Positions 2 to 55,576 are shown, counted from the stretch's first letter. The stretch is 64,000 nt of DNA from Candidatus Poseidoniales archaeon (GCA_038106355.1 JAYODQ010000003.1:2534-66533), one strand, 5' to 3'. Notes: generated by a model from the letters alone, not told the origin. Program-made: numbers and translations.

Positions 2-3000
2 GACACAAACAACGGATCTGCTCAGGTATGGGTCATCACAGAAGATGGTGATGGTACAACCTACACCAAGCACAACTTGCGAGCATCAGGACCCGCTGGT
101 GTAAACGAGACCCTTGTTGGTGACGCATGGTACTCAGCGACCACCAACTCTGGTACGTTTGGAGTTGGCGACAGTGCAGCACTACGATTGTACCCTGCTC
201 CACTTACCTTCGAAGACCCTAACCTTGATTGTGCAGCACTCGCTGGTAATTCGACTCTGGAACCAAATTATGTTGATACTGACGGGGACGGAGTCAAAGA
301 CACCTTCCGATTCCAAGAGACCACCATTTCGGTCCTTGAATCGTTTGAAATCGATGGATGTACTATCGTGATTGAGGGCGGTGTGCTTCGAGTGACAAGT
401 ACTTCGACCACTCAACCAGTCATCACCATCTCACAAGGTGGAGAATTGCGTCTCACCGATTCACCAGATATTACTGGACTCGATGGAACCATTGTCCGAG
501 CATCCTCATCTGCCAATCCACTTCGATTTAACATGGCTGGCGGAACCCTCAATGTCATGAACGGTTCACAAATCAAAGATTTGTATCAAGATGGAACCAC
601 AGACAGTGCATTGTATGTCGGCGACGGCTCAACCCTGAAGATGAGCAACAGTGCTACCATCTTTGGTGCTCAAGCATCCTCTGATGACATGGCAACGGTG
701 AAAATCGACGGCGGTTCTCTTGACATCGACGCTTCTACCATCCAAAACACTGGCCAAACAGGAACAGCGCTCTGGGTTGAGGCTTCAGGTGCATCCATTA
801 GTAGCATCACTGTAAAGAATGCTGCAGTAGGTATTCAATCCTACAACGGTGCCCCTCAAGTTGATGGATTTACACTCTCCAACAACGATGTTGGAATTGC
901 TGTTTACGGCGGTATGTCACTACCATCCATTTACCGAAGCACATTGTTGTCAGGTCAAAACTCTGGTTGGAAGACGTACGCAATTGATGCATCGACCTTC
1001 CTAGGAAGCGGAAACAACTACCTCCAAATTGGTGCAAACGCCATCTACGGTGGAGGTGACGCTCACCCGTACTATTCCTACAGTACATCTCACTGGTACC
1101 TTATCTTCGACCGACTCAACATTGAGTTGACAGACACATCAGGAAACAAGTGGAACGTTACCAACCCAAGCCAAATTGGATACTACCCATACAGTTCAAG
1201 CGACCCAGCGATCAGCACCTACTCCCACGTTGGAAATTACGACGGTGGAAACGGTGGTGCTCCATCATGGCATTGTAACTACTACGGCTACAACTATGGT
1301 CCAAATTACCAATACTACGACGGTTACTTCTACTACATGTATTACTATTGGCTCGGACAAGGTGTAAGCTATCCAGGTTACTACAGTGCTCCAGATAAGT
1401 TTGGATTCGACTGGGAAGACATTGGTAATGGCGTCACACCAAGTGGAACCTATGCTTACTACCCATACATGTGGTGGGGATACTACTCTCCTTCGTTCAT
1501 GTTCAGTGGTGCAAACACACCACCTGAAGGCTCGAACGGACAAGGTTCGTGGCCAGGTAACGTCGGCAACCCGCCTAGCTATGCAGCAAATGGATACCCA
1601 ACCAACTACGGTCTATGTATGACATACGCATACACTTACTACATGTCCAGCGGTCAAGGTGCTCGACTCACCTTCCCAATCGTTGACATTTCAGCAAGCA
1701 ACCTGTCCAAGGTCACCATTTACATGGACTTCCTCCACAATGGTGCAGACAACTATCAAGACCGAATGGACTTCGTTGCACGTGCAGCATCATCTGCATC
1801 CGACCTTCTCGATGAAGCATACGTTCGTGAGTCAGGTACGCCAATGTTCCAAAACGGTGAAATCACCGGCGCAGACAATGGAATCGACATCGGTGGTAAC
1901 TTCGCTGCTGCGAACTTCAAGAACATCGATGTGACCAGTCCAACAAACGCAGGTCTACTCGTTTCTGGTCAATCTAAAGGTAGTGCAGATGCAGTCAATG
2001 TGACTGGCGGAGATTACGGTGTTCTCGTTTCCACAAGTGGTTCAGGAACAATGGATTTGACCAACCTTGATTTGGACGGTCAAAACAAGGCTGGTGTCTA
2101 CTATGCAAAGGATATCAATGGCGATCTCACTGGTACCTTTGCAAACATCGGAGGTGCAGCCGTTGAATATGGTGCAAGTACATCCGCTGATGTTGAATTC
2201 TCAGATTTGTTAATCCAAGGAAACGATGTTGGTATCGAAACTGCAGGTTCCGGAAAAATTACTATCAAAGATTCGACATTCGCCAACACAAACAATGACT
2301 TCGTCATAACTGGTTCGTCAATCATCGATTTCATTGAAGGCGACTTGGTTCTCTCAAGCGTTGATGTTTCAGGCTCGGGTAAATTCAACAGAATGCGAAT
2401 TGCGAACATCACCGTAACTGCAGATTCATCTGCTGTTTCTGGAACATCTGTTGTCGTGCGTGATGGCGATGGAAAAATTCAGGGTGTTCAAACCACAGAT
2501 TCGAATGGTAAAGCATCAGGAATTACTTTCGTGACTGCATATGTGACGAGCATAGGAACTACAACCCCATCGCTCTCAGGATATACTGCCTCCACGACCG
2601 CTGAGGTTGAATACACATCCTCAACTGCTGATTTCAGATACGCTAAGGACACGCTTTCATTGGTTGATGATGCGTACAACAACGAAGAAACGGTAGACTT
2701 AGTCAATCAATTCGAAGGTCGAATTTGTTATCCTGGTTCAAGCAGTTCATTCGTCATGGTGTCGGCCTGTCGATCAGGTCTCGGTACAGGTTCGAGCCGA
2801 ACCTACAGTTCTCCTTCAGGATTTGAAGAATTCAGCTATTATCAAGGCCACTCCGGTAGTGATTTCGCTGGAAAAACCATCATGATGGATACACCATACT
2901 GGTACATGGGCTCTGGTGACCACAATTGGAATGGTACGGACCTTATCTTTACCGCATCATATGCTGGCAACCTCGCTAACTACATGTATCCGTACTACTA

Positions 3001-6000
3001 TTATGGTGAAGTTTCAGTTTGGATGAACGATGGTTCAGTCACAGCAGCAGCTGTAAGTTCCGATGGAGTCCTTAACGGAGCAAGTATGGGATACATGTAC
3101 TACGCATGGAACTTCCAAGCCAACAACACCACCTTTGATGGAATTGAAACCCTGAGTTCCGGTGTTGGATATGGATACTATTCTGACTACATGCCAGACT
3201 TCTTTGATGTGACAAACAGTACAATTACCCACTTTAAGGGATACACGCAACTCAACAACGCAATTCAAATTTCAGACATTTGTATCGTCTTGAATGGTGT
3301 TGAAGGAACTGACATCAACGACAACACCTTCAACAATTGTGGTGTTGGTGTGTTCTCACAACGTTCAGGATACTATTACACTCACTCCTCGAGTGAAATT
3401 GGTTCAGACAACTTGACCATCAACCGAAACACATTCAACGATGGTGGAGAAATTGCAGACATTTGGCTCTACACGACCAACGAAATCCAAGGTGCAGAAA
3501 TTGACGGAAATACGTTCCACACCACTGCAGGTGGTTCGGCGATATCTGTCTATCCAGGTAACACAAAGGATGTTGACATCACCAACAACGACATTAACGG
3601 TGGTGGAGATGACCTCATCTTCCTGTACCAAACCCACAACTTCAATGTTTCAGGCAACGATATTACTGGTATCACTCAACAAGATGAAACCACTGGTATT
3701 TACACCTACCAAGGTAGTGGAAGTGTGACTGACAACACCATCACTGACGCTGAATACTCCGGTATTTACATGGAACAAATCAGTACACCACCTGCAAGTG
3801 GCAATTCACTCTGTAGCATCGGTCGAACTGACTACCGATATAGCGACACCTGTGATTGGAACTTGGGAAGTGGAAAGAAGGCAACCCTCGGTCTTGACAC
3901 CGACAGTTGGGGTTACGAGATCAGCATCGCTGTTGTTCTCAACAACACCACCGTGGTTAACTCTTGGTCAACCTACACCTTCAACAGCAATGCTGGATAC
4001 CACCCGCTTGCAACCTACACCACACCAGGATACTACAAGCTGTATGTCAACGATTCATACGGGGATGGTGGTGCAACCATTGAGGTCACAGAAACCTCAT
4101 CCACTGCATCCACTGCATCCGACGCTGTCATTTCAGGAAACACCATTGGTTTGTCAACTGGTCGACAGGCACCTTCTGCGGTCGGAATGACCCTAGCAGA
4201 TTGTGATTCGATTGCGATTGCTTCGAGTTCAAACACAATTACCCTCGAAGACAATGCTATGGTGATCGATGATTGTGATGTGAGTGACGTCGGTTCTGTA
4301 CTGACCGGTGCAGGAGCCAGTGGTACCACTGGTATCTTCTCTGACTCAGCATACAATGGACTTGTCTTGAACGGAACAACCATCTCCGGATACGATACTG
4401 GTGTTCACAAGGAACTCGGTGTCCTCACCCTCAAGGGTGATGCCGACATCACGGGTGACGAGTACGGTATCTACACCGATGATGTTGATGTCATCTCCCT
4501 TGGTGCAAGTGTTGATGCAGATGACACCGATGGTGTTGCACTCTACTTGCTCAACAGCGATGACACCTGGATTTACCCACTCGATGTCGACGGAAACATT
4601 GGTGTGTTTGCAAACAACTCAGTCTTCCGATGGGACAACCTCGGAACTGGTGTATCAGATGCAACAACTGCACTCAAGACCGAAGACTCAACAGGTTCCA
4701 TCGAGAACATGACCTTCGGTAGCACAACCACGTACCAAATCGATGCTGGAAGCAATTCCCATATCACATCCATTGGTCATACGCTCAACTCTGGTGAGTT
4801 GATGGTTCATTCCACCGCAGTGATTGACGAGGCAAACTTGTTCAACATTGAAACCACTCATCTTGGTGCAGCACCAACAAACGATGTGGCATTGATGATC
4901 ATGTCAAGTGACAACAGCCGTGCATCCTATGTTTCAACATCCTTCCAACCAGAAGTCATGAACATTGATGGTTCAACTGACGACTGGTTTGGCGGAAATG
5001 AACTCAACCCAGCAGGATATGCCATGCCAGGTAACATGAGCGGTGATGGAACAGACAACATGTATGTCACATACAATGTTGCAGACAGCCTCTATGTTGG
5101 TTTGACTGGTGTCGACCTCAGCAGTGCAGATGTTCTCATCTACCTCAGTGTTGACGGTAGTGGCTCAAGCACAGGTTACAACGGAATGGGTGGATCACAC
5201 GACCTACCATTCAGTGCAAACTACGTGCTCTGGGCAGACAGTACCACCTCCTTTGATTTGTACAGTTATGGATTCCTTGGATGGGGACCAAGTTCACTCA
5301 GCACTGAATCCGTCGGAGCTGCACAAGGAACTGAAATCCTCGAATTCGAGATTCCATTCAGCCGAATCGGTGGTACGCCAGATGCAGTTGACATCATCGC
5401 AATCGTTCAAGCAGAAACTTCAGCAGACGTAAGCACTGTTCACCCAACTCAAACCATCGATTCTGCTCAAACAGCACAATCCTTTGAGAAATACGTGAGC
5501 GTTGAACTCAAGCACGGTGACCTCAACAGTGGTTCACTCTATGATGAAGTTCTTGTGTATCAATCCTACAAGGGATCAACCACACCTTCAGGTGCAACTG
5601 ATTACAACGTCATGGTCATGACAGATGCTGACTGTGCTATCGATTGGACAGTCGTCTCTGATGTCTCACTTGCAAACAACGTCTACCTCACATCAAGTGG
5701 AACAGGTGTTGTGAACATCGCAAGAGCATGTCCAGTGATTCAAACCACACTCACTGACATCTCCATCCTTGAGGACTACGATACTGATTCAGACGGTTCA
5801 ATCGATACCTACTCATTCAGTTTGACCGACCTCGCAGACGATGTGCAAGATGAAGAGAGCACACTCACTTGGCAAGTTGATGATTCAAACCTCGATGCTT
5901 ACGACAATGTCTTGTTGGGATACTCACTCAACGGCCAGACATTCTCCGTCGTTCCTGTCGAAGATGCATTCGGTACCATTGAATTCACATTCAATGTCAC

Positions 6001-8221
6001 TGACAGCAATGGACTCATGGACGAGAAGACCATTGTCTTCACCATCGAGAACGTCAACGACCCACCAGTGATTTGTAACGTCAATGAAGTTGATTGTATG
6101 CCTATCTTCTCAACCGATGACGGATTTGACAACATCCTTCCAGAAGGATTTGGTGTCCACAAGAAGTACCTCGGTGCTCTTGCAAACCAATCACAATCCT
6201 ACATCCGAGATAAGGCAAACGAGCAAGTTCCATACCGACAATCGTACTCATGGGCTGCTTCAGTCCCATCATCATGTACAGCGTTCGGTGTTGCAATCGA
6301 CGGATATGAACTCGTCATTACTGAAAACACCAGCAACGAACTTGGTGGTGCTTGTGATGTCACCCTCGTTGTGACTGACAATGGAACGGAGAACCAAGAC
6401 TCCATTCCATTCGATGTGACCTTCTCGGTCTCACCAGTCAACGATGCACCAGTCATTCTTGACTGGGACCGACAGAACGAAGTGGTGATGAAGGCAGACA
6501 ATGGATCGATTCCAAACGTTCCATGGATGCTCACCTTGATGGAAGATGACACAAGTGCAAGCAACTTGACCTACGACCTTTCTGCAATCAAGTACGACAT
6601 TGACCACAACCTCGGTGACCTCTACTGGACAGTCGAATCTACCGACCAATGTGACTACGAGAACTACTTCACGACAACCATCTCAGGTGATGACCTCATC
6701 TTCGATCTCGTCCCAGATGCAACAACCAACGCAAGAATTTGGGAAATTGATTACCTCAACGACAACGGTATTCACCAGACTCCACCTGTTGGTTCAGAGT
6801 TCTGTCAAATCAGACTCGTGCTTCGAGACACATTGAACGCACCATCCTATGTGCCAAACTATGACACTTCGATTATGCCAATTGCAAACTATCAGCAAGG
6901 CATGGTCACAAAGGAGATTGGTGTCCGTGTTGACAACGTTCCAGAACTTGTCCCTGACTACTACTTCGCATCCGACTCTGGATTTAGCTGGAACGGTATT
7001 ACATCGGTCATGACCGGTACCTACCTCCCAGTGACTGTCACAGTCGGTGGCGGCGGTGACGAAGGTCCATACACCTACGACCACATGCTCAAGGTGACCT
7101 TCCATTCAGATGGTCACACCGAATCTGAAACTGCACGATACTACACTGTGCCAGATTATGGTGGCGAGATTTCAATCACAGATTACGTGTACATCACTCG
7201 TGATACCACTGAAGTTTGGGTTGAAATGGATGTCTTGACATGTCTCTCGAACCCATGTGACTTGACAGCGACCATCGACACAAGATTCCAGATCGACGAG
7301 CCAGGTTCACACCGAGCAACCAACAGCGGTCTACAAGGCGAAATGTGGTCCAAGCCAGGTCAATACGGTTCCAATGGAACAGCGACCTCACAACGACGAC
7401 CACTCCTTGAAGACAGCAACTGGTGTAACAACGTCATGTCAACCGATGCAACCGCTGACATCTGCAACCATGCGAACCAACCAGCAAGCGAATTCCTCGC
7501 AACCAACCAATCCCTCCCAATCGTGGTAGGTCAAATTGGTGCATCTGCGGTTCCATCGTTTGCTCCAAGTATTATTGCAGTCGCACTTGCAGGATTGTTT
7601 GTCAGTGCTCTCTCCTTCACATCTCGCCGAGATGAAGACGAAGAAGAAGTTGTGAAGACCATGTCTGACGACGAAGGTGCTGTGAGCCCAGTGATCGCTA
7701 CCATTCTGATGGTTGCTATCACCGTGGTTCTCTCTGGTGTCATTTACGTGTGGGCATCAAGCCTCGCTGAAACCGATGTGAAAGGCGTCCCTCGAGTGAC
7801 CTTCACCATTGAAGACCACGACGGCGGAGACCCAGACAACGGACACTGGAGAATCACCGTTGGCCAAACTGAAACTGACCTTGCAACCCAAGCGGTCATT
7901 GTCAGAGTCATGTATGCCAACGCAAGTGGTGGATTGGTGACCTTCAATGCGAACCTCGCAGACAGCAACGGCGTCTATGGTTTCAACCCTGAAAACAGTG
8001 ATGCATTCGTCACGTTCGTCGATTCAACACTACGTCTTGAAGGAACTTCATACAAGTCAACCTTCAGTGCTGGTGACACAATCTTCATTCGAACACATGA
8101 TGCAGAAGGAACTCCTCTCGTCGATGCAAGAATTGACTTGATCTATCAACCAAATCTTGCTGGTGCTCAGGGAACTCTTCTCAAATCCTACAGCGACTTG
8201 TCATACAACAAGGCTGCTTGA
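2..8221 (+). CDS. Giant surface protein, 5' end cut by the window edge (at least 2739 aa). Contains parallel beta-helix-type repeats, Tyr/Gly-rich low-complexity blocks, cadherin-like repeats and a C-terminal TM anchor, followed in frame by a pilin-like module.
   Basis: Frame 2 is open from nt 2 (no stop upstream of the listed TTG at 77) to TGA at 8219-8221. Beta-helix-like turns recur (NNDVGIAVYGG, GNDVGIETAGSG, NNCGVGVFS, INGGGDDLIFL). VNDPPVI (~6052-6072) and VNDAPVI (~6438-6458) look like cadherin/Ig-type repeat boundaries. N-x-S/T sequons are dense. A hydrophobic helix IIAVALAGLFVSALSF (~7570-7620) is followed by RRDEDEEE. Confidence 0.85.
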   Translation, partial: DTNNGSAQVWVITEDGDGTTYTKHNLRASGPAGVNETLVGDAWYSATTNSGTFGVGDSAALRLYPAPLTFEDPNLDCAALAGNSTLEPNYVDTDGDGVKDTFRFQETTISVLESFEIDGCTIVIEGGVLRVTSTSTTQPVITISQGGELRLTDSPDITGLDGTIVRASSSANPLRFNMAGGTLNVMNGSQIKDLYQDGTTDSALYVGDGSTLKMSNSATIFGAQASSDDMATVKIDGGSLDIDASTIQNTGQTGTALWVEASGASISSITVKNAAVGIQSYNGAPQVDGFTLSNNDVGIAVYGGMSLPSIYRSTLLSGQNSGWKTYAIDASTFLGSGNNYLQIGANAIYGGGDAHPYYSYSTSHWYLIFDRLNIELTDTSGNKWNVTNPSQIGYYPYSSSDPAISTYSHVGNYDGGNGGAPSWHCNYYGYNYGPNYQYYDGYFYYMYYYWLGQGVSYPGYYSAPDKFGFDWEDIGNGVTPSGTYAYYPYMWWGYYSPSFMFSGANTPPEGSNGQGSWPGNVGNPPSYAANGYPTNYGLCMTYAYTYYMSSGQGARLTFPIVDISASNLSKVTIYMDFLHNGADNYQDRMDFVARAASSASDLLDEAYVRESGTPMFQNGEITGADNGIDIGGNFAAANFKNIDVTSPTNAGLLVSGQSKGSADAVNVTGGDYGVLVSTSGSGTMDLTNLDLDGQNKAGVYYAKDINGDLTGTFANIGGAAVEYGASTSADVEFSDLLIQGNDVGIETAGSGKITIKDSTFANTNNDFVITGSSIIDFIEGDLVLSSVDVSGSGKFNRMRIANITVTADSSAVSGTSVVVRDGDGKIQGVQTTDSNGKASGITFVTAYVTSIGTTTPSLSGYTASTTAEVEYTSSTADFRYAKDTLSLVDDAYNNEETVDLVNQFEGRICYPGSSSSFVMVSACRSGLGTGSSRTYSSPSGFEEFSYYQGHSGSDFAGKTIMMDTPYWYMGSGDHNWNGTDLIFTASYAGNLANYMYPYYYYGEVSVWMNDGSVTAAAVSSDGVLNGASMGYMYYAWNFQANNTTFDGIETLSSGVGYGYYSDYMPDFFDVTNSTITHFKGYTQLNNAIQISDICIVLNGVEGTDINDNTFNNCGVGVFSQRSGYYYTHSSSEIGSDNLTINRNTFNDGGEIADIWLYTTNEIQGAEIDGNTFHTTAGGSAISVYPGNTKDVDITNNDINGGGDDLIFLYQTHNFNVSGNDITGITQQDETTGIYTYQGSGSVTDNTITDAEYSGIYMEQISTPPASGNSLCSIGRTDYRYSDTCDWNLGSGKKATLGLDTDSWGYEISIAVVLNNTTVVNSWSTYTFNSNAGYHPLATYTTPGYYKLYVNDSYGDGGATIEVTETSSTASTASDAVISGNTIGLSTGRQAPSAVGMTLADCDSIAIASSSNTITLEDNAMVIDDCDVSDVGSVLTGAGASGTTGIFSDSAYNGLVLNGTTISGYDTGVHKELGVLTLKGDADITGDEYGIYTDDVDVISLGASVDADDTDGVALYLLNSDDTWIYPLDVDGNIGVFANNSVFRWDNLGTGVSDATTALKTEDSTGSIENMTFGSTTTYQIDAGSNSHITSIGHTLNSGELMVHSTAVIDEANLFNIETTHLGAAPTNDVALMIMSSDNSRASYVSTSFQPEVMNIDGSTDDWFGGNELNPAGYAMPGNMSGDGTDNMYVTYNVADSLYVGLTGVDLSSADVLIYLSVDGSGSSTGYNGMGGSHDLPFSANYVLWADSTTSFDLYSYGFLGWGPSSLSTESVGAAQGTEILEFEIPFSRIGGTPDAVDIIAIVQAETSADVSTVHPTQTIDSAQTAQSFEKYVSVELKHGDLNSGSLYDEVLVYQSYKGSTTPSGATDYNVMVMTDADCAIDWTVVSDVSLANNVYLTSSGTGVVNIARACPVIQTTLTDISILEDYDTDSDGSIDTYSFSLTDLADDVQDEESTLTWQVDDSNLDAYDNVLLGYSLNGQTFSVVPVEDAFGTIEFTFNVTDSNGLMDEKTIVFTIENVNDPPVICNVNEVDCMPIFSTDDGFDNILPEGFGVHKKYLGALANQSQSYIRDKANEQVPYRQSYSWAASVPSSCTAFGVAIDGYELVITENTSNELGGACDVTLVVTDNGTENQDSIPFDVTFSVSPVNDAPVILDWDRQNEVVMKADNGSIPNVPWMLTLMEDDTSASNLTYDLSAIKYDIDHNLGDLYWTVESTDQCDYENYFTTTISGDDLIFDLVPDATTNARIWEIDYLNDNGIHQTPPVGSEFCQIRLVLRDTLNAPSYVPNYDTSIMPIANYQQGMVTKEIGVRVDNVPELVPDYYFASDSGFSWNGITSVMTGTYLPVTVTVGGGGDEGPYTYDHMLKVTFHSDGHTESETARYYTVPDYGGEISITDYVYITRDTTEVWVEMDVLTCLSNPCDLTATIDTRFQIDEPGSHRATNSGLQGEMWSKPGQYGSNGTATSQRRPLLEDSNWCNNVMSTDATADICNHANQPASEFLATNQSLPIVVGQIGASAVPSFAPSIIAVALAGLFVSALSFTSRRDEDEEEVVKTMSDDEGAVSPVIATILMVAITVVLSGVIYVWASSLAETDVKGVPRVTFTIEDHDGGDPDNGHWRITVGQTETDLATQAVIVRVMYANASGGLVTFNANLADSNGVYGFNPENSDAFVTFVDSTLRLEGTSYKSTFSAGDTIFIRTHDAEGTPLVDARIDLIYQPNLAGAQGTLLKSYSDLSYNKAA
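7661..8221 (+). other. Archaeal type IV pilin-like module (class III signal peptide plus ~160 aa domain), in frame with the giant ORF. It may be a separate gene starting at the internal ATG at 7661.
   Basis: The translation reads MSDDEG|AVSPVIATILMVAITVVLSGVIYVWASSL. The (G/A)VSPVI(A/G)xILMVAITVVL pattern is the conserved N-terminus of archaeal pilin/DUF1628-type proteins. Gly is at 7676-7678 and Ala at 7679-7681. No stop codon separates it from the upstream TM anchor. Confidence 0.6.
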
Positions 8222-26697: not shown

Positions 26698-26723
26698 TGG
26701 GGTGCGTGTAGGGGTTGAGCCCC

Positions 26724-29700
26724 ATGCTGTTGAGGAAAGATACTTCGTCGAAATTGACTGTTTTTTTATTGGTATCATTGTTTCTTTGTGCCGATTTACT
26801 TTTACCACAAACGCAGGACGGGTGGGAAGTTCTCGAAACAAAAAATCAAGTTTCGCATGCAATAAGCAATCATTATGTCATCGCAGATACGTACATCAAC
26901 GAATCCTCACCCGGCACCAATTACAACGGTTCTGATACTGGATATTTGATTCCGACCGACGGAGAAGAAACACGAATTCTTCTCGATTTCCCCATGAATT
27001 TCACTTCGAGTGATATCATTTACAATGCAAGTGTCGAATTGACATGCACCATTCTCTCCGGTCAATCCACAAGCGAAATTTCTGTCTACCCAGCACGAAT
27101 GAGCCAGGGGTGGAATTCAACAATCGTTTCATGGAGTTATTATGCAAACAACTTGTTGTGGGCTCAAGGAGGTGCAGATGGTGCATCGGATCGCTTTGAC
27201 TGGGAGCCGCCAAGCCTTGCAACCTCTACTGGTGTCTTGGCCATCAACGTGACATCATTAGCCCAGCAAGCCGCTAAAAACAATCTTGGAAAATTGCGCC
27301 TCATTCTTGCCGCTACAGGAACCTCATATGCTTGTGATTTGTCTGAAACACAGAATTCAAACAGTCAACCGGTTCTCGTCATTGATTCATCCACAGGAAC
27401 TCCGACAAGTGGTGGGGCTGTTGAATTTAATCTTCCAATCGAAGATGGTGCCCCATGGATGACCTCAGATTTCATCCTCACCGCCGAAACAACACCAACG
27501 ATTGCTTACAAAAATCATACGGCAAGCGATGTTGAACTTCAACTGAGCCACTCCTCTGACTGGAAAGATGGTGTTGTGGTGACCAACGAACGACATTATT
27601 CGACGCTGTGGAACTCATTCCAAACTTCTGGGTCATCTGGTTCGTTTACCATCCCATCATCCGATGAGTTTTCCAATGGAACCAATGTGTACGCTCGTAT
27701 TCGTTCCATCGATACAAATCTACAGATGAGTGCTTGGAAAGAAACAAGTTTCATTCTTCCATCGCATTCCATTACCGATAATGGCGATGGTACAGCTACA
27801 TTGACGATCGAAACAAACGACCTCGGGCTTGAGTTGGATTTCATCGAAGATGCAACTGTTTCTCAAACATCTGTCACCTCAAACTTTGGTACCTCTCAAA
27901 CTCTTGATACAAGCATGACCGCATCAAAGGAAGTTCTCGGTCATATTCGACTGCGATTGAACCAACTCGGATTGCATGACAACCTGACCATCGTCGAGTC
28001 ATCGATGTCGTACGTTCGTTCCTCGTACAGTGGTAATTCCATCGTTTCACTACACGGGATGGAAGAATCAGGTGTATGGTTGGAAGATGAAATAACATGG
28101 AATCAAATGTCGAATTCTGGAGTGAATTGGTACGATGGCGGGCGCAGCAATGGTACAGCAACCATTGACGTGCTCAATGTCAACCAGTCTTCCTCAACCT
28201 TTGAGTTCAATCTTACCCAAGCTGTTCAAAATTATCTCGATGATTCAGACGCAGACCCTATGGACATGTTTGTTGCCCTTCGAGGAAAATTCGAATCATA
28301 TTCCAACGGAGAAAGTCTTGTCTTACATTCCTCGGATACCTCAACTGGGAACGACCCCTCATTCCAACTTACCTACAAATGGGGTAGCGGTGCCCCTTCA
28401 CCCGTGACCATTACTGCCCCAGAAGATGGCCTAGCGATGTGGAATAAAACTGGAGACAACCTCTCGGGCAACACTCAACCATCGCTCAACTGGTCCATTT
28501 CTTCAAGTTCTGATAACATTCTGTTCCAAATTGCAAGGGATGAAGATTTCAGATTGCGAGACCTCGTCCTCGACACTCGAGTGGACAATGATTTCTCACC
28601 TACGGATGGAACATTCACAATGAACGGCTCGAGAACCCTTTCAAAAGGAAACATGTACTTTTGGAGAATGGCCACCGTCGATTCGGCAGGGCATTATGGT
28701 ACCTGGATTTCATCAAGTTTCATGGTCAGTAACCTTGAGAGCACATACCTTGGTAACGACAGGTATGAATTTAGAATCCGTCACGGGAATGGAACCAACG
28801 ATAATCAATACCCAGAATGTATGGACACCTTCATCGACAGTTCGTCGGTCAATGCAAATTACAATGGCGACTCGGAAATGTCCATCGAATACAACAACCC
28901 AGATAAAACAACTATTCTGATGGGTTGCAACTTGGTTTCAAACCTCTTACCAGCGGGATATGCAGTCGAATCTGCACAGTTGCACGTCACCTTAACAGAT
29001 GCACCGTACAATGCCCCGGTGATTGGTGCATGGGAGAGCCGTCAACACAACTGGTCCGATGATGATGCGACGTGGTCGAGTTACGATGCTTCGAATTCAT
29101 GGGCGACTGCTGGAGCAAATGGATGGGAACGTGGAGCCCTGCTGTCAAGTTTGACACTTGGTAGCTCCTACTTTGGAAACGATGTTGTTGAGTTCAATGT
29201 CACTCAAGCCGTTCAAAATGCAATGCGTGAAGGACGTCGAGTTGACTTTATCATCGATCAAATCGGTGTTCCCTCGGGTGGTTTTAGCAGTGCATACTTT
29301 AACACTGCTGAGTCGTCAACCGAAGCCTATCGGCCTGAGATTACCTTTGTGTACATGCCCGGTTCCAACGCTGTACCGCAGAATCCAACCCTCACCTCAC
29401 CATTGAATGGTTCATGGTCCATTGGAACAGGAGTGGACCTTACACCGATTTCGACACCACAATTTGAATGGAATTTTACCGGAAGTATGGCCATTGGTGG
29501 TTGGGTTGTTCAACTTGATAACGTATCTACTTTCGACTCAGGTAACGCCGTGACATACACCTCTTGGAACGATGCAGGCTTTGATGTTCAAAATGAAACA
29601 TTTACTCCATCATCGTCCCTCACAACCGGAAAAACCTACCACTGGCGTGTCCGAGCAATTTCCTCGACAAATCAAATCGGAAATTGGTCTTCAGTGAACT

Positions 29701-32700
29701 CATTCCACCTACCAGACCTCACAACTTGGGTTGAGAATTCAACCACAGCAGCCGTTGAAATCCATCACCATGATGCCTTGCCACATCTCCAGATACCACA
29801 CCTCTATGACACCTATATCATCGAGAACGGAAGTGGTGCCTCTTCCACATATGCAACTTCACAAACATTGCGAGTCGGTCGTCACAGCAATGGATACAAT
29901 GCTGTGGCTTTGCTCAAAATACCTCTCAGCGCCATTCCACAACCAGCGAACGCTCGAGTTGTTAACGCTGAATTGAATGTGTTTTCAGATTTGAATTCGG
30001 ACCAATCCCTCCCTATCGCAGTCCGCCCGGTGCTTGTGAATTGGAATGAATCTGCAAATTCAACTACGTACGATGGAGTCAACAATTGGACCCAACTTGG
30101 CGGACGTTCAATTGGTAACGATGTTGGTTTGTATTCCGATATCGTTGAGACGGTCACCGACGATTGGATGAATTGGGATGTTACGGAACTTGTCCAACTT
30201 GCCATTGCAAACAGTCAGACTCATTTGTCCGTCATGCTGTATGCACCATCTTCAACCACGAGCGATGCCTTGTTGTATTCAACATCCTACCCAACCGCTT
30301 CAAAGCGACCGTGGTTGAATCTTACTTGGTCGGCAGGTGCAGCATCCACACCAACAACTGCAGCAATCAACAGTCTACCTGCCAACAATGCGGTCATGTG
30401 GGATACGAATTCTCATGCAGTCCAAGCGAACTTCAGGCCTACGATGAGTTGGACATACTCCGGTTCGAACATTACCGCCTGGCGAGTGTTCATCCTTCAA
30501 GATTCAAACGATGACATGCAAGGGCTGTACACCTACGACTCCAGAGTCAATACTTCGGCGTTCGACTTACAAAATTTACAATTCACCCCACCTGCTGACC
30601 TTGACTTTTCCGAAGAAATTCGATGGATAGTTCAACCTGTCCGTGATGGGATGATTGGCCCTCGTAGTTCATCCACCATCTTTTACATCCCGACCGTTGT
30701 TGGTGGAGAGGTCAATTCAACGGATGCACATTTGATGATTCAGGAAGGTTCGATGATCGATGCGTTGAATTATCCAACTGCAACACAAGATACGTACCTT
30801 GACAGTGGTAACACGCAGGCAAACCAAGGCAGTTCGGATTCGTTGTTCGCAGGGCGAAGTGCCAATTCATACAACACCGCATCCTTGAGATCAAGTTCAC
30901 TCATCTCAATTCAACTCTCATCCGTGCCATTGCCTACAACGTACGAAGTTGTGAATGCCACACTTGATGTGGATGTCACTTCGTTTACAGGAAACGCTAT
31001 TTCCATCTCCGTTTCAGAAATGCTTTCTACATGGAGCGAGTCTTCATCATGGGCGTACCCTGCAGGAAATACAAGTGCTTGGCAAGGTATAGGTGCATAT
31101 CATTCAGCAGACTCAGATGGCATCAACGATATACAAATTGTGAATTCAACCGGGTTGGTTCAATTTAACATCACTGCCATTTTACAACACGCGCTTGCAT
31201 CAGGGCAAACGTCACTGAATGTCATTTTACAGCCCGAAGAAGATTCAAACGGCAATGTCGTTGGACGTGCACAATTTGCAAGTTCAGAGCATAACAACAT
31301 CACCATTCGCCCCCGAATCAACATGACATACAGAACAAACCCAAGTTGGGCTATGCCAGCTCCCGGTAGTTTGCTTCCCGCAGACGGCACAATTCTATGG
31401 GATGCAACTTCCTCACTCCCAGCGGGCCAAGATACATCCTACTTCTCCATCACACCCGCTGTATCAAACGAAACCAGATTCGTGTACTGCAAGAGCAATG
31501 AACCCCGATTTTCCGTTGAAACAGAATGTTTTGATACCAATGACCCTGGTCAAGGTCAAACGTTCTATTCCTCGAACAACACCCTTGAAATCAACAATAT
31601 GGACAAAGGCGATTTCTGGACGTATTGGCGAGTACGTTCGGACCAAGACCATCGAATAGGTGAATGGTCTGCTGTTCATTCATTCCGAAATCCAAACAAC
31701 ATCGGAACGAACAATTCGGGTAACTACACCGTGAATCTTAGCCGCGGAACTGTGTTCAGTGTTTCTGGCTTATTGCCAGAAGCACAGGATGTTTCACTCT
31801 CAACCAATCAAACATCGACAGCAGGAGCAGCAGCATCGATGAACCTCGGATTTTCAAGCAGTGGAGAAGCGCAAATCTTTGTTGAATTTGATTTGAGCGA
31901 TATCCATTTCCCAGCAAATGCCATGCCAACCAATGTCATATTGAAACTGTACAGAAGTTCACTCACAGGAAACTCTGCCTCCACCATATCTGCTCATGCA
32001 TGCAATAGTTTTGATGAATCGACAGTTGTATGGTCAACAAAACCAACGTGCTCACCAACGGAAATTACACGAACAACATTGACTTTGTTACCACCGAATC
32101 AATGGATTGATTGGGATATAACAGGTCTTGCTCAAGACAATTTTGCGAATGGAAATTACACCTTTTCCATCATGCTCAAATCGGTGGGTACACCCTTGAC
32201 GACCCATACCTTTGCCTCGGCAGAATCGTCGTCCTCTCAATTTTGGCCAACGTTGTCCTTTGAATACGTTGACAATGTCAACAACATCACTCCTCCAAGC
32301 CAACCATCGTTGAATTCACCCAACGACGGTGAGGTGTTGTATAACCTTACAAATGGATTGTTGAGTTCCAACCAGTACCCAACATTGTCTTGGAATGCGG
32401 TTTCTGGTGCATCTGGTTACATGTTGACCATTTCAAACGAAACCGGAGTCTACAAATTCCGCTCATGGGAACAAAATTCAGGAATTTCTGGAACAACATT
32501 CCAATTTACCAACGCCTTGACCCCAGGAGAAATTTTCACTTGGTGGGTGTCAGCGTTCAACCAAAGCATCCCCGGTGCATCTTCTGCACGTTGGACCTTT
32601 GCCATCGGTGACCCAAGCCATACATACAATTCCAACACTGAGATCTTTACCTACGAATTCCAAACTGGAAATGAGGTGGAGTCCTTTGGTCATACGAACA

Positions 32701-35700
32701 TTCAAGATTCCACGCTGAACTCTGAATTTGCTGATGTGAACCTCGGCGATAGTGCCTACTTGCAAAGTGGAACATTCTGTGGGACCTTGTATGCACATCA
32801 GTGCCGACTTGTTTTCAGCCTTGACCCTTCACAGGTTCCATTCGACGCCAATCAAAGTGTTCATTCAGCAGCCCTCGGATTGTACGTCGACGACTGGGAG
32901 AGCGCTCAATCGGCAACATTGATGACATTCAGAGTCTATCCTCTGCTCACAACCGCTTGGTCTCAATCTGGTTCGACATGGAATGAATCCTCCAGCGGTG
33001 TTGGATGGTCAACACCAGGTCTTGGCTCAGGTGTGGAGTATGGTTCAACCCCAATCTCCACCATTACGATGTCTGTGGGTCAAACTGGATGGATTTGGTT
33101 TGATATTGGTGCACCAGGAATGAATCTTGCGAACACCCAAGGGTGGGTCATCATCGGTTCATCGAATGTGGGCGTAGCACATGCTCAATTCTATTCCAGT
33201 GAGTATCAAGGCAACAGTGCCCTTCGGCCGAAAATATTGTTCAACACAACCAATATTTCGACCATTACCGTGACCCCAGGTGGTACAACAATTGACGCAG
33301 ATTCCACCCAGCTCTTTGCAGCCGTTGCAAAAGATTTCAACAGCGTCACAAAGTCTGTTCTGCTTGAATGGTCTTCGAGCAGCGGTAACATTGGGAGCAA
33401 TGGTCTCTTCACCCCAAGTGCAGCAGGTACGCAAACCGTGCAAGCATGTTTTGGCCTTGTTTGTGGAACACAAACCATCATTGTCACCGCCGGTGCACCC
33501 GTTACACTGCAAGTCACTCCGTTGACTGCGACCATCACCGCCGATGAGACACTTACCCTGACTGCAAACATGGTTGACCAACATGGTAACCCTGTAACAG
33601 GCGTTTCACTCACCTATACTCCATCCAATGGAAGTATGAGTGCGGTGATGCCTAATATTTTCCAACCATATGCCGTCGGTCAACATACCATCCTTGTGTC
33701 ACATCCAGCATCGGGCAATTCAGTAACCATCGATGTCACCGTCACCAATGGTGCACCTGCTTATTTTGAAGTGAGTGGCTGCGAAGGAACCGTTGCTGCA
33801 GGTGTTTGGTGCGAGATTACAACGCGACTGTTTGATCAGTTTGGCAATCTGCTCGACATTGAAGATGCAGGAGCATTAACTTGGACAACGACCAATGGAA
33901 ATTATTCTGATGTCAACGATGAGTATTTCCCTGACCATGTCGGTTCATGGCATCTGAACCTTTCTTCAGCCGTAGGCTTGACATATTCTCTTCCAATTAC
34001 AGTTGGTCATGGTGAAATGGCATACCTTGAGATTACATCCTCAGGTTTGGAAATTACAGCGGATGAAATCATTTACCTCAACACAACTCGAATTGATGTA
34101 CGAGGAAATAGATTACCAGTGTACCTGCCGAGTAACAATTGGACGAAGATTCAAGATGGTATCCTGACCCCTGGTCAGCCGGCTTCTTGGGAACCAAAAT
34201 CCAGAGGTTCCAAGGTGCTTGAAGCACGTTATGAAGATAAATCCACTCAAATCACCATCGTGGTTTTGGACGGTCAAATTCAGCGTTTGATTCTCCTTGT
34301 CGATGGTGAAGAAGTATCAGGTACGTCACAAGAAATGACAGCGGATGATTCGATGGAAGTTAAGGTTCGAGCAACGGATAGCAAAGGAAATATTTGGGAA
34401 TTGAATGCTGAATGGATTGTCAATCACCCATCGATTGCTTCTGCATCATCATCCCTTGAAGAATATCAGGGCGGCGTTGTGATCGAACGTTCTGTCATTT
34501 TCAGTCCATACAAAGCAAGCAGTTCCTCTTACACGATTCGTGCATCGTTTACGCAAGACAATACAACTCACACAACACAATTTGAAGTGAAGGTGTCTGC
34601 TGGTGTTCTTGAATCTGTCATCATCAATGCCATGGCGGGTGATGGTGTACCCAATACTCAATTTGAGATATCTGCGGACGATTCTATCCAATTTGCGATT
34701 ACGCTGACCGATGCCAAGGAAAATCCAGTGGATTCATCAAATGTTCGATGGTTGCTCTACAACCGAGACACAGATGCTGTTAGTGACATCACTGTGGCCA
34801 TGTTGTATCATGGTTTGATGTGGAACGCAACAAAGGTTGGAAATTACGAGATTGTTGCCTATGACGTCAGTTCAACCAACTACAACATTTCTGACAGTGT
34901 TCTCATTACGGTGTACCATGGAGAGGCCATTGAATTGATTCTCTCCTCAACGAACAAAACCATCGTTGCTGGCTCAATTGTTGAATTATCGGTCACTGGC
35001 AAAGACGCTGATGGTAATTTGTTCGCCCAAAATGTCGATTGGTATGAAGGTGGTGATGTTGTCGAAGGACTTGAATCAAATGAGGATGAAGACGGAGCGT
35101 ACCAATACACAGGGACGATAGCAGTAATTCATACCCTTACATTTGAATATGGTATCGCCCAATCGAGTGTTGAGATTACTGTCTTACCACAAGCCATCAC
35201 TGCACGACTCGAAGTCGAGTTAAGCACAACGACCGTTGAGCAACTTGGTTCGTTTGAGGTATACATTCGTGCCTTTGACATGTACGACAACGAAATTGAA
35301 GTTCCTTCAAGTGTTCAAGTCGATGCATCTGGAAGGGGTACTGTGATGATGATCAACACCTCCACATGGAAAGTTACGACGCTCGATGAAGGCACTCAGA
35401 GTGTCACCATCAGTGTTGGCCCAGTGCTTGAAAAAGTCGAATTTTCAGTCACAGGTACACTCGAAGGCTTCTTTGAAGCCGGCGGTACGCTGTATTATGT
35501 TGGAGCAGTCCTTGGTGCAATTGCTTTGCTTGGAGCGATCATTGGTCTGGTTATCTTCATGCGGTCAAACAAAACAGACTGGGACCTTGAAGACGAGGAA
35601 GACGATGATGATGATGATGATACACCAGTCCAAAAGCCAACACCGGCAGGTCTCAAAACTGGTCCAACCGGTGCTCCACCAGCAGCCGGTCCTTCAGGAC

Positions 35701-35909
35701 CACCACCCTCGGGCGGCCCAAGTGGACCACCGCCAGCCGATGTTGAAGAGGTGCCCGAAGACGTCGAAGAAGAGGAGGAGGCTTGGGATTATACCCAAGA
35801 TGAAAGTTACCGAGTCGATGAAGCTGGCACTGAGTGGTACCAAGACGATGAAGGTACGTGGTGGTACAGGGAAGAGAATCAAGAAGATTGGAGCGCGTGG
35901 GAAGAGTGA
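26724..35909 (+). CDS. Giant surface protein (~3061 aa): signal/anchor, at least 7 alternating FN3-like and DNRLRE/CBM-like modules, about 10 Ig-like (Big_2-type) repeats, a TM helix, and an acidic/Pro-rich cytoplasmic tail ending in a Trp-rich motif.
   Basis: The N-terminal hydrophobic segment is LTVFLLVSLFLCADLLL. Recurrent module starts are DTYI/DTFI/DTYL...N-Y/F-G/N...L. Recurrent motifs of the form tYhWRVRA...WS..F appear. C-terminal repeats look like ITVTPGGTTIDADSTQLFAAV and LQVTPLTATITADETLTLTA. The TM is LYYVGAVLGAIALLGAIIGLVIFM (~35488-35561). The listed TTG at 26715 is possible, but ATG 26724 is preferred. Confidence 0.85.
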   Translation: MLLRKDTSSKLTVFLLVSLFLCADLLLPQTQDGWEVLETKNQVSHAISNHYVIADTYINESSPGTNYNGSDTGYLIPTDGEETRILLDFPMNFTSSDIIYNASVELTCTILSGQSTSEISVYPARMSQGWNSTIVSWSYYANNLLWAQGGADGASDRFDWEPPSLATSTGVLAINVTSLAQQAAKNNLGKLRLILAATGTSYACDLSETQNSNSQPVLVIDSSTGTPTSGGAVEFNLPIEDGAPWMTSDFILTAETTPTIAYKNHTASDVELQLSHSSDWKDGVVVTNERHYSTLWNSFQTSGSSGSFTIPSSDEFSNGTNVYARIRSIDTNLQMSAWKETSFILPSHSITDNGDGTATLTIETNDLGLELDFIEDATVSQTSVTSNFGTSQTLDTSMTASKEVLGHIRLRLNQLGLHDNLTIVESSMSYVRSSYSGNSIVSLHGMEESGVWLEDEITWNQMSNSGVNWYDGGRSNGTATIDVLNVNQSSSTFEFNLTQAVQNYLDDSDADPMDMFVALRGKFESYSNGESLVLHSSDTSTGNDPSFQLTYKWGSGAPSPVTITAPEDGLAMWNKTGDNLSGNTQPSLNWSISSSSDNILFQIARDEDFRLRDLVLDTRVDNDFSPTDGTFTMNGSRTLSKGNMYFWRMATVDSAGHYGTWISSSFMVSNLESTYLGNDRYEFRIRHGNGTNDNQYPECMDTFIDSSSVNANYNGDSEMSIEYNNPDKTTILMGCNLVSNLLPAGYAVESAQLHVTLTDAPYNAPVIGAWESRQHNWSDDDATWSSYDASNSWATAGANGWERGALLSSLTLGSSYFGNDVVEFNVTQAVQNAMREGRRVDFIIDQIGVPSGGFSSAYFNTAESSTEAYRPEITFVYMPGSNAVPQNPTLTSPLNGSWSIGTGVDLTPISTPQFEWNFTGSMAIGGWVVQLDNVSTFDSGNAVTYTSWNDAGFDVQNETFTPSSSLTTGKTYHWRVRAISSTNQIGNWSSVNSFHLPDLTTWVENSTTAAVEIHHHDALPHLQIPHLYDTYIIENGSGASSTYATSQTLRVGRHSNGYNAVALLKIPLSAIPQPANARVVNAELNVFSDLNSDQSLPIAVRPVLVNWNESANSTTYDGVNNWTQLGGRSIGNDVGLYSDIVETVTDDWMNWDVTELVQLAIANSQTHLSVMLYAPSSTTSDALLYSTSYPTASKRPWLNLTWSAGAASTPTTAAINSLPANNAVMWDTNSHAVQANFRPTMSWTYSGSNITAWRVFILQDSNDDMQGLYTYDSRVNTSAFDLQNLQFTPPADLDFSEEIRWIVQPVRDGMIGPRSSSTIFYIPTVVGGEVNSTDAHLMIQEGSMIDALNYPTATQDTYLDSGNTQANQGSSDSLFAGRSANSYNTASLRSSSLISIQLSSVPLPTTYEVVNATLDVDVTSFTGNAISISVSEMLSTWSESSSWAYPAGNTSAWQGIGAYHSADSDGINDIQIVNSTGLVQFNITAILQHALASGQTSLNVILQPEEDSNGNVVGRAQFASSEHNNITIRPRINMTYRTNPSWAMPAPGSLLPADGTILWDATSSLPAGQDTSYFSITPAVSNETRFVYCKSNEPRFSVETECFDTNDPGQGQTFYSSNNTLEINNMDKGDFWTYWRVRSDQDHRIGEWSAVHSFRNPNNIGTNNSGNYTVNLSRGTVFSVSGLLPEAQDVSLSTNQTSTAGAAASMNLGFSSSGEAQIFVEFDLSDIHFPANAMPTNVILKLYRSSLTGNSASTISAHACNSFDESTVVWSTKPTCSPTEITRTTLTLLPPNQWIDWDITGLAQDNFANGNYTFSIMLKSVGTPLTTHTFASAESSSSQFWPTLSFEYVDNVNNITPPSQPSLNSPNDGEVLYNLTNGLLSSNQYPTLSWNAVSGASGYMLTISNETGVYKFRSWEQNSGISGTTFQFTNALTPGEIFTWWVSAFNQSIPGASSARWTFAIGDPSHTYNSNTEIFTYEFQTGNEVESFGHTNIQDSTLNSEFADVNLGDSAYLQSGTFCGTLYAHQCRLVFSLDPSQVPFDANQSVHSAALGLYVDDWESAQSATLMTFRVYPLLTTAWSQSGSTWNESSSGVGWSTPGLGSGVEYGSTPISTITMSVGQTGWIWFDIGAPGMNLANTQGWVIIGSSNVGVAHAQFYSSEYQGNSALRPKILFNTTNISTITVTPGGTTIDADSTQLFAAVAKDFNSVTKSVLLEWSSSSGNIGSNGLFTPSAAGTQTVQACFGLVCGTQTIIVTAGAPVTLQVTPLTATITADETLTLTANMVDQHGNPVTGVSLTYTPSNGSMSAVMPNIFQPYAVGQHTILVSHPASGNSVTIDVTVTNGAPAYFEVSGCEGTVAAGVWCEITTRLFDQFGNLLDIEDAGALTWTTTNGNYSDVNDEYFPDHVGSWHLNLSSAVGLTYSLPITVGHGEMAYLEITSSGLEITADEIIYLNTTRIDVRGNRLPVYLPSNNWTKIQDGILTPGQPASWEPKSRGSKVLEARYEDKSTQITIVVLDGQIQRLILLVDGEEVSGTSQEMTADDSMEVKVRATDSKGNIWELNAEWIVNHPSIASASSSLEEYQGGVVIERSVIFSPYKASSSSYTIRASFTQDNTTHTTQFEVKVSAGVLESVIINAMAGDGVPNTQFEISADDSIQFAITLTDAKENPVDSSNVRWLLYNRDTDAVSDITVAMLYHGLMWNATKVGNYEIVAYDVSSTNYNISDSVLITVYHGEAIELILSSTNKTIVAGSIVELSVTGKDADGNLFAQNVDWYEGGDVVEGLESNEDEDGAYQYTGTIAVIHTLTFEYGIAQSSVEITVLPQAITARLEVELSTTTVEQLGSFEVYIRAFDMYDNEIEVPSSVQVDASGRGTVMMINTSTWKVTTLDEGTQSVTISVGPVLEKVEFSVTGTLEGFFEAGGTLYYVGAVLGAIALLGAIIGLVIFMRSNKTDWDLEDEEDDDDDDDTPVQKPTPAGLKTGPTGAPPAAGPSGPPPSGGPSGPPPADVEEVPEDVEEEEEAWDYTQDESYRVDEAGTEWYQDDEGTWWYREENQEDWSAWEE
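35604..35621 (+). repeat. (GAT)6 trinucleotide microsatellite encoding a poly-Asp run in the cytoplasmic tail.
   Basis: Read directly: gac gat gat gat gat gat gat, which translates to D7. Confidence 0.9.
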
Positions 35910-55349: not shown

Positions 55350-55576
55350 GTTGCTTCGGTTTCGCTGGAGGACATGAACCATTCGGAGATGAGATACGGC
55401 CGAGAAGTGCAATTGAAGCGAGGAATGAACTTAGGTCAACCTAGCCATTCGAGATTCACGTTGCCATGACCTTTGATGGTCCATGGAACGCCCTTCAAAT
55501 TCAACGAAGCGGAAATGAGAGCATTTTAACATTGTACGGTCATAAGAATCATGAAGACATAGCGGTTGGACAGGGT

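Follow-up and report, generated by a model that had tools for sequence, protein, structure and literature searches.

A giant surface-protein open reading frame (ORF) of Candidatus Poseidoniales archaeon, situated at the left edge of a 64,000-nucleotide (nt) window (the whole stretch of DNA analysed here, all coordinates having been checked against the sequence), carries, as the C-terminal part of one of the largest Poseidoniales proteins, a complete prepilin behind a transmembrane (TM) helix. The C-terminal module is a bona fide archaeal type IV pilin, composed of a hydrophobic helix and a β-sandwich, and the layout of TM helix, acidic loop and pilin is conserved across hundreds of species-level genomes. 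The gene fusion is almost certainly real, anciently fixed and translated as one polypeptide. With a probability of roughly 0.45, and arguing from sequence features, we propose that a class III signal peptidase would cut this polypeptide at an invariant Ala/Val junction, to release a giant protein anchored by the first TM helix (TM1) together with one pilin-like subunit. The Poseidoniales (Marine Group II, MGII) are globally abundant, uncultured ocean archaea whose attachment biology is debated.

Anatomy of the giant ORF

An earlier sequence-only reading of the window had described a stop-free frame that passes through a TM helix, a charged loop and a pilin helix. This C-terminal anatomy stands. 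Overlooked in it were a juxtamembrane VPSFAPS motif, the modularity of the hairpin composed of TM1, linker and pilin helix, and the fact that the gene runs past the window edge: the frame is open already at position 2, and the gene is therefore cut on the left. The ectodomain inside the window comprises about 2,500 amino acids (aa) and not the >2,700 aa given before, the complete orthologue P0121 having a full length of 4,595 aa; the start formerly set at 7549 lies one base out of frame, the codon beginning at 7550.

Relatives were collected by an exhaustive phmmer search of 1.84 billion representatives and by a scan of one genome per GTDB species, which gave 539 stretches encoding relatives, the best 80 loci being taken. 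The codon alignment and the linker statistics refer to 78 loci, and a separate pattern-independent set comprises 19 representatives. The features of the ORF are as follows.

2..8221, + strand: giant surface-protein ORF; stop-free translation from position 2, 2,739 codons, frame 77+3k
7394..7549, + strand: membrane-proximal stalk segment RRPLLEDSNWCNN...C.H...LP.VV with two invariant cysteines (78-locus codon alignment)
7550..7570, + strand: juxtamembrane motif VPSFAPS, consensus [PAT]-[SG]-F-x-P-[SG] (codon alignment)
7571..7618, + strand: TM1 IIAVALAGLFVSALSF, a stop-transfer helix, predicted to run out-to-in (hydropathy and AlphaFold2 helix)
7619..7630, + strand: TSRR, basic pair flanking TM1 on the predicted cytoplasmic side (RR identical in 78 of 78 loci)
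7631..7678, + strand: acidic cytoplasmic linker DEDEEEVVKTMSDDEG, 16 residues in the window (78 loci compared)
7661..7663, + strand: in-frame internal ATG (Met in that alignment column in 41% of loci)
7676..7681, + strand: GGT GCT codons
7679..7684, + strand: predicted class III signal peptidase site Ala(-1)/Val(+1) (A and V identical in 78 loci)
7679..7756, + strand: pilin N-terminal hydrophobic helix AVSPVIATILMVAITVVLSGVIYVWA (PF07790 and TIGR02537 above threshold)
7787..8218, + strand: immunoglobulin (Ig)-like β-sandwich globular domain of the pilin module, predicted extracellular, about 150 aa (AlphaFold2, Foldseek)
8219..8221, + strand: TGA stop of the giant ORF

Peak hydropathy amounts to 2.05 for TM1 and to 2.54 for the pilin helix (19-residue Kyte-Doolittle window). 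The positive-inside rule suggests the placement of RR at the cytoplasmic side, and 197 residues are still to come after this pair before the ORF ends. In VPSFAPS, none of the 78 loci deviates at the S, the F or the second P, and 99% of them share the A. The stalk segment (7394-7549) shows an invariant W-C-N-N motif, with the second invariant Cys about 24 residues further on, and it is also present in a variant that lacks the hairpin (P0145). Situated by the membrane, the stalk cysteines may form a disulfide or a metal site.

The giant part is probably adhesin-like. We infer the designation adhesin, for the window ORF gives sub-threshold matches alone (Cadherin_5, E 0.37; tandem-95 repeat, 30.4 bits versus 90); matches to Beta_helix/NosD are found in the distant member P0138.

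Conservation of the fusion

In 80 of 80 species-representative loci, no stop interrupts the frame on its way from far upstream across TM1 and linker into the pilin; these loci are the best 80 of the 539 and all belong to metagenome-assembled genomes (MAGs) of Poseidonia, Poseidoniaceae or Poseidoniales. L005 shows 97% identity to the window. Alignment of related loci had been suggested earlier as a way to see whether the junction carries a stop. Carried out here, it shows a stop-free junction in every retrieved locus with complete sequence there.

In the complete orthologues, which range from 2,785 to 5,559 aa, the module of TM1, linker and pilin is located at the extreme C-terminus. Complete fused proteins are P0121 (4,595 aa, module 4372-4595), P0124 (4,572 aa), P0125 (5,559 aa), P0132 (4,640 aa), P0134 (4,539 aa), P0137 (4,372 aa) and P0138 (2,785 aa), and the N-termini of P0121 and P0124 are like Sec-type signal peptides. 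At L001 3612-4160 (PADF01000011.1), NCBI calls a 182-aa pilin alone in a frame that is open for 1,381 codons, and fragments of the giant fusion from contig ends account for many of the short database records called 'flagellin-like protein' or 'type IV pilin'. One Poseidoniales cassette contig (L047, NZEQ01000026.1) is filed under a Verrucomicrobiales bacterium MAG, probably through a binning error.

Identity and fold of the pilin module

The claim that the second hydrophobic segment represents an archaeal pilin N-terminus is borne out by searches that pass curated cut-offs, with Pilin_N (PF07790) matching at E 3.9e-9 and 37.7 bits (gathering score 25.2) and TIGR02537 at E 6.9e-9 and 35.1 bits (cut-off 20). 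A pilin-type N-terminus occurs this single time in the 64-kb window. The hallmark of class III signals, a small -1 residue followed by a hydrophobic helix, is present (A/VSPVIATILMVAITVVLSGVIYVWA). Its motif begins at residue 2,560 of the window ORF and at about 4,410 of P0121; thus, it is not N-terminal.

The AlphaFold2 model of 7523-8218, computed with 84 homologues, has a mean predicted local distance difference test score (pLDDT) of 78.6. It shows the TM1 helix at residues 16-39 with low pLDDT, a disordered loop at 40-55 (pLDDT <50 for residues 40-50), the pilin helix at 56-84 and the strands of a β-sandwich at 92-226, where ten-residue blocks mostly score 83-94 and one block scores 68. 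The structure prediction for the terminal domain that the sequence-only reading had advised accordingly gives an Ig-like β-sandwich, whose closest PDB counterparts are subunits of archaeal type IV filaments: Foldseek ranks 8rey (a Cuniculiplasma divulgatum filament) best, followed by the archaellins 5z1l, 9eq7 and 7ofq, at E-values of 1.6e-4 to 4.5e-3 the TM-scores being modest (0.28-0.41). Among solved proteins, those closest in sequence are the pilins 8fj5, 8gi2 (Natrinema PilA2) and 9myg, and the Ignicoccus adhesion filament protein Iho670.

Leader context of the internal class III signal

The residue at -1 is Ala in 78 of 78 loci and in 19 of 19 pattern-independent representatives. Position -2 varies across the 78 loci among A, M, T, S, Q, L, G, V and H, with R in 2, and the window reads E-G-A/V. 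The FlaFind-type motif, [KR][GA][ALIFQMVED][ILMVTAS], has a basic residue at -2. This residue is missing from the window ORF and likewise from 83 of 102 stand-alone relatives with the same helix. The linker measures 15-19 aa, contains a mean of 9.7 acidic and 0.45 basic residues, and all of its length changes are in frame.

For comparison of leaders, 104 stand-alone proteins were used that have the same helix at their true N-terminus; some of the stand-alone proteins with a class III signal carry a Poseidoniales annotation. The consensus of the stand-alone leaders is K/R-N-[DE]-E-A/VSPVIAT, with E (50 proteins), K (16) or R (3) at -2, and E or D at -3 in 90. Solved pilins have an acidic context as well, NDDSA-VSPVIG in 8fj5 and SDEERA-VSPVIG in 8gi2. 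The acidic region before the predicted cleavage site, which had appeared as an oddity of the locus, is therefore shared with ordinary pilins. Given that acidic leaders are typical of stand-alone pilins, the linker end DDEGA/V looks like a retained prepilin leader, and the internal Met may descend from the start codon of the ancestral prepilin. The distal K/R (at about -5/-6) that is usual in stand-alone leaders is absent from the fusion linker.

A stand-alone pilin copy (P0016) was noted at L087 727-1287, on a 1.37-kb contig of 1.4x coverage. It has about 360 nt of non-coding sequence upstream, a Shine-Dalgarno (SD)-like GGAAGGAGGA and the canonical leader MQNENRNEEA, and represents either a real stand-alone paralogue or an assembly chimera.

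The hairpin as a discrete module

Mean pairwise identities in the pattern-independent representative set differ by segment.

VPSFAPS: 0.79
TM1: 0.49
RR: 0.79
Linker: 0.42
Pilin helix: 0.92
β domain: 0.36

The hairpin of TM1, loop and helix is a discrete module that moves as a unit, for it is missing between the same flanks in P0145 and present between unrelated flanks in P0230. P0145, and likewise P0150 and P0156, when aligned to the window, match on either side of a gap of 75 residues, the exact counterpart of TM1, linker and helix; in these proteins the stalk passes straight into the β domain, and the anchor is a separate TM helix at the C-terminus. P0230 shares 50% identity with the window over 76 aa, comprising PSFAPS, TM1, linker and helix only. 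There (with P0210, P0254 and P0239), the cassette is flanked by an ectodomain and a globular domain that are both unrelated, and the linker is basic.

The hairpin-less paralogues (P0145, P0150, P0156, P0139) are 416-707 aa long and retain the stalk end and the pilin β domain. Their C-terminal anchor reads LPSIG-TM-R(R/D) in P0145, P0150 and P0156, and consists of a different TM helix with an acidic tail in P0139. The second family (P0210, P0230, P0254, P0239, P0285; locus L085 124-3810) reaches up to 2,342 aa, and its cassette has the form PSFAP[SG]-TM-linker-[GA]/VSPVIAI, the -1 residue being G in P0210 and A in P0230, P0254 and P0239.

In 1.06 Mb of sampled DNA, the PSFAPS-TM-RR motif is always found upstream of a pilin and on no other ORF. 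Distant members have APGFLPS (P0137) or TPGFVPS (P0138) in place of VPSFAPS, which recalls PGF-CTERM. The C-terminal signals of archaeosortases reportedly include PGF-CTERM (TIGR04126), PEF-CTERM and VPXXXP-CTERM. The resemblance lies in the tripartite arrangement of short motif, TM helix and basic cluster (here VPSFAPS, TM1 and RR); unlike those signals, the element is not C-terminal here, with some 200 residues beyond it, and it falls short of the curated models. The window segment gave no match to any sorting-signal model at E up to 10, and the P0138 segment scores 8.3 bits against PGF_CTERM (24.5) and 15.4 against Heimdall-CTERM (24). A search for literature linking archaeosortase with MGII/Poseidoniales found none. 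With the motif on no other ORF, the interpretation of TM1 as an archaeosortase signal of VPxxxP- or PGF-CTERM-like type was set aside and remains a lead only.

Proposed mechanism and alternative explanations

In the mechanism that we suggest, a giant surface protein with a length of about 4,500 aa in close orthologues would be exported by Sec and cross the membrane outward until export is halted by the stop-transfer helix TM1 with its flanking RR. The acidic loop of 15-19 residues would be left in the cytoplasm, the prepilin N-terminal helix would re-enter the membrane, and the Ig-like pilin domain would come to lie outside, beside the base of the giant protein. A class III signal (prepilin) peptidase might then cut at the invariant Ala/Val-Ser-Pro on the cytoplasmic face, the products being the TM1-anchored giant protein with a short acidic tail and one mature pilin-like subunit. 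Very probably the topology agrees with the one put forward at the outset by the sequence-only reading: from an external ectodomain the chain would pass inward through TM1, expose RR and the acidic loop to the cytoplasm and return outward through the pilin helix, with the β domain ending up outside. It is consistent with all findings, including the hairpin-less variants, which support it by placing the stalk end and the β domain on one side of the membrane.

To the cleavage step taken alone we give even odds, judging by the motif and its context. The linker end [DE][DE]xA/VSPVIAT matches the leaders of the 104 stand-alone pilins. Identity of the helix (0.92) compared to TM1 (0.49), with synonymous change free, indicates a constraint on the helix beyond the needs of simple anchoring. 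A filament cannot plausibly be built from one pilin per 4,500-aa protein, hence the subunit is likelier to be a minor or partner subunit, or a membrane-proximal anchor that acts together with the giant protein, than a major pilin. An elaborated form of the proposal, a membrane polyprotein with a hairpin cassette that undergoes the internal class III cut and possibly a second one at the extracellular VPSFAPS to yield one pilin per adhesin, is advanced as a speculation with less than even chances. Several observations weigh against cleavage. The linker is nearly devoid of basic residues and the FlaFind-type K/R at -2 is lacking; attachment of the β domain to the stalk in P0145, P0150 and P0156 implies that this domain works while attached; PSFAPS-TM1 and the pilin helix also occur as a pair in an unrelated family, and an uncut hairpin could be the functional unit; and no pilus assembly or peptidase gene is found nearby, either in the window or in loci L001, L003, L004, L085 and L086.

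Uncut, TM1 and the pilin helix would stay joined by the acidic loop as a helical-hairpin anchor, a tentative explanation which we nonetheless consider nearly as likely as cleavage. The β domain would then be the membrane-proximal stalk or base of the giant protein, and the class III motif would be kept for insertion, packing or oligomerisation. The behaviour of the hairpin as a single module speaks for this, as seen in the 75-residue gap and separate C-terminal TM helix of P0145, in P0230, where PSFAPS, TM1, linker and helix alone are shared amid unrelated flanks, and in the sampled DNA, where PSFAPS-TM-RR never occurs without a pilin. The absence from the linker of the basic residues of stand-alone leaders and the lack of pilus genes linked to the giant gene point in the same direction. 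However, every member seen has the small -1 residue and the leader-like [DE][DE]xA, neither of which an uncut loop needs; the helix is far more conserved than TM1, with synonymous change being free; and archaeal class III peptidases such as PibD are reported to tolerate varied leaders.

The sequence-only reading had offered two further explanations. Both fare worse than the internal cut. That the pilin arises mainly from an internal promoter or start (ATG 7661 in the window), as a gene nested in the giant ORF with read-through being incidental, is improbable. The in-frame ATG does exist as described, and linkers with a Met (63 of 78) often have it at -7 (32 loci; -2 in 23, -9 in 4 and -11 in 4), giving a leader length near that of stand-alone pilins. 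Gene callers or NCBI annotate the short pilin alone in some records (P0007; P0024/L001), and the low-coverage contig L087 bears the stand-alone copy with its own SD-like sequence. Yet 15 of the 78 linkers are without Met, and the sole Met at -2 in 23 loci would leave a two-residue leader. SD-like motifs stand upstream of 2 of 68 internal ATGs, none having been found before ATG 7661 of the window, and the frame survives in-frame length changes in every locus. Invariant residues of TM1, linker and helix are each encoded by 3-5 synonymous codons in the codon alignment, with 4-5 in the pilin helix taken alone, from which it follows that no conserved nucleotide element is embedded and that the amino-acid invariance is due to selection at the protein level. 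An embedded promoter or ribosome-binding site serving the internal ATG was rejected on these grounds, synonymous variation not being reduced and SD-like motifs being nearly absent. Some lineages may initiate the pilin independently, but internal start is not the mechanism that is conserved. The other explanation, that a lost stop, frameshift or mis-assembly joined two ordinary genes, is refuted. Two scaffolds (L002 and L088) show an apparent break between giant gene and pilin, but these only apparent splits are runs of N, located within TM1 or just upstream; the other loci, independent assemblies of different species, are open throughout, and gene callers predict the complete fused proteins of up to 5,559 aa.

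Relation to known systems

Class III (type IV pilin) signals are, to our knowledge, treated as strictly N-terminal, and prediction tools as well as censuses of archaeal pili look only there; likewise, we know of no report of a class III signal peptidase cutting at an internal site behind another TM helix. Modular type IV pilins with large grafted domains exist, for example Streptococcus sanguinis PilB/PilC, and share with the present protein the covalent joining of a pilin module to a large extracellular module. Their effector, however, is C-terminal to the pilin helix and still attached after leader cleavage, whereas the giant part is here N-terminal to the cleavage site and a cut would separate the two. 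Large Poseidoniales proteins with an N-terminal class III signal are also found (P0169, 491 aa, 'lamin tail domain-containing protein'; P0170, 829 aa).

In flavivirus polyproteins, junctions comprise internal signal/anchor sequences that are cut at the membrane face. By analogy, there is in both cases a stop-transfer helix, a short cytoplasmic loop, a re-insertion helix and, as proposed here, a cut at the boundary that would give two anchored products at 1:1; there is no homology, and the protease proposed for the archaeal protein is an aspartic class III signal peptidase.

Stand-alone archaeal pilins (PilA, 8fj5, 8gi2, 8rey) have the helix AVSPVI[AG].ILMVAITV.L, the small -1 residue, the acidic leader context and the Ig-like fold in common with the module. 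In them the class III signal is N-terminal behind a leader of about 10-40 residues, whereas in the fusion it is internal, >2,500 residues in (about 4,400 in orthologues), and follows a TM helix and a strongly acidic loop. The PilA adhesion pilins of Haloferax volcanii are such stand-alone DUF1628/Pilin_N proteins (Esquivel et al. 2013, cited in PMC5069720). The PilY1/PilC-type adhesins of minor-pilin tip complexes resemble the present case in that a very large, adhesin-like protein is functionally paired with a subunit of pilin type. Those, however, are separate genes in pilus loci, in contrast to one ORF here with no nearby pilus genes and a putative link to a filament. A PilY1/PilC-type role in archaeal type IV pilus (T4P) loci has been proposed for DUF2341 proteins (PMC4858521).

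The MGII genomics papers, archaeal T4P reviews and censuses searched (PMC4858521; bioRxiv 10.64898/2026.04.22.720090) contain no description of a class III signal that lies internally or C-terminally behind a TM anchor, in agreement with the initial impression that the arrangement had not been reported. The parts are known, namely giant surface protein, TM anchor and archaeal prepilin; their order and the processing it implies are new. If cut, the protein would widen the substrate range of prepilin peptidase and offer a new polyprotein route for linking giant adhesins to pilin machinery. The polyprotein mechanism, if true, would connect an adhesin of about 4,500 aa with the machinery of type IV filaments or archaella in those planktonic archaea that are most abundant in the surface ocean, and would constitute the first internal class III signal and a new way to deliver or anchor giant surface proteins. 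If not cut, a pilin has been recruited as one half of a hairpin membrane anchor. Either outcome alters the annotation of genes now split, truncated or labelled only 'flagellin-like' or 'type IV pilin', and provides a testable handle on MGII cell-surface architecture.

Genomic context and further observations

A Pfam scan of 29 window ORFs revealed no domain of a T4P ATPase, a platform protein or an A24 peptidase, as the sequence-only reading had noted for the assembly ATPase and platform genes. Five more ORFs adjoining the giant gene are housekeeping genes, judged by synteny with annotated orthologous loci. The class III peptidase motif GxGD[K/R] gave one spurious match only in all retrieved loci. 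An archaellum-type FlaHIJ operon is reported from elsewhere in Poseidoniaceae genomes, where a function in adhesion has been ascribed to it (PMC6461757, PMC6336850). Work on the Red Sea found a DUF1628 gene, possibly the one treated here, to have the seventh-most abundant transcription start site on MG-II contigs (PMC5069720), which would favour a nested pilin gene.

Beyond the window, the upstream synteny of giant genes (L003 926-9560, L004 916-9540) begins with divergent TatA and ThiS, followed by an ABC ATPase, a permease of about 1,500 aa and FtsX/MacB type, an unannotated protein of about 1,050 aa, the giant gene and a HAD hydrolase. The trio of ABC ATPase, permease and unannotated protein may serve the giant protein as a partner in its export or extraction.

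Other surface proteins are encoded in the window. A second giant ORF (26715-35909, + strand; 3,064 aa) contains CBM96 (E 8.5e-43), a disaggregatase-related repeat and Big_1, and ends in a TM helix followed by a very acidic, Pro-rich cytoplasmic tail with the W/Y-rich motif GTEWYQDDEGTWWYREE. This motif resembles the tail of the unrelated surface protein P0139, and may be a shared cytoplasmic docking motif. At 55466-58822 (+ strand), a 1,118-aa surface protein with Ig-like domains has a C-terminal TM helix and a cytoplasmic CPxC...CPxC tail with the look of a zinc ribbon. Lastly, the ORF at 38557-40209 (- strand) fuses an amino-acid permease to a C-terminal EF-hand pair (AA_permease and EF-hand_7), which suggests a calcium-regulated transporter.

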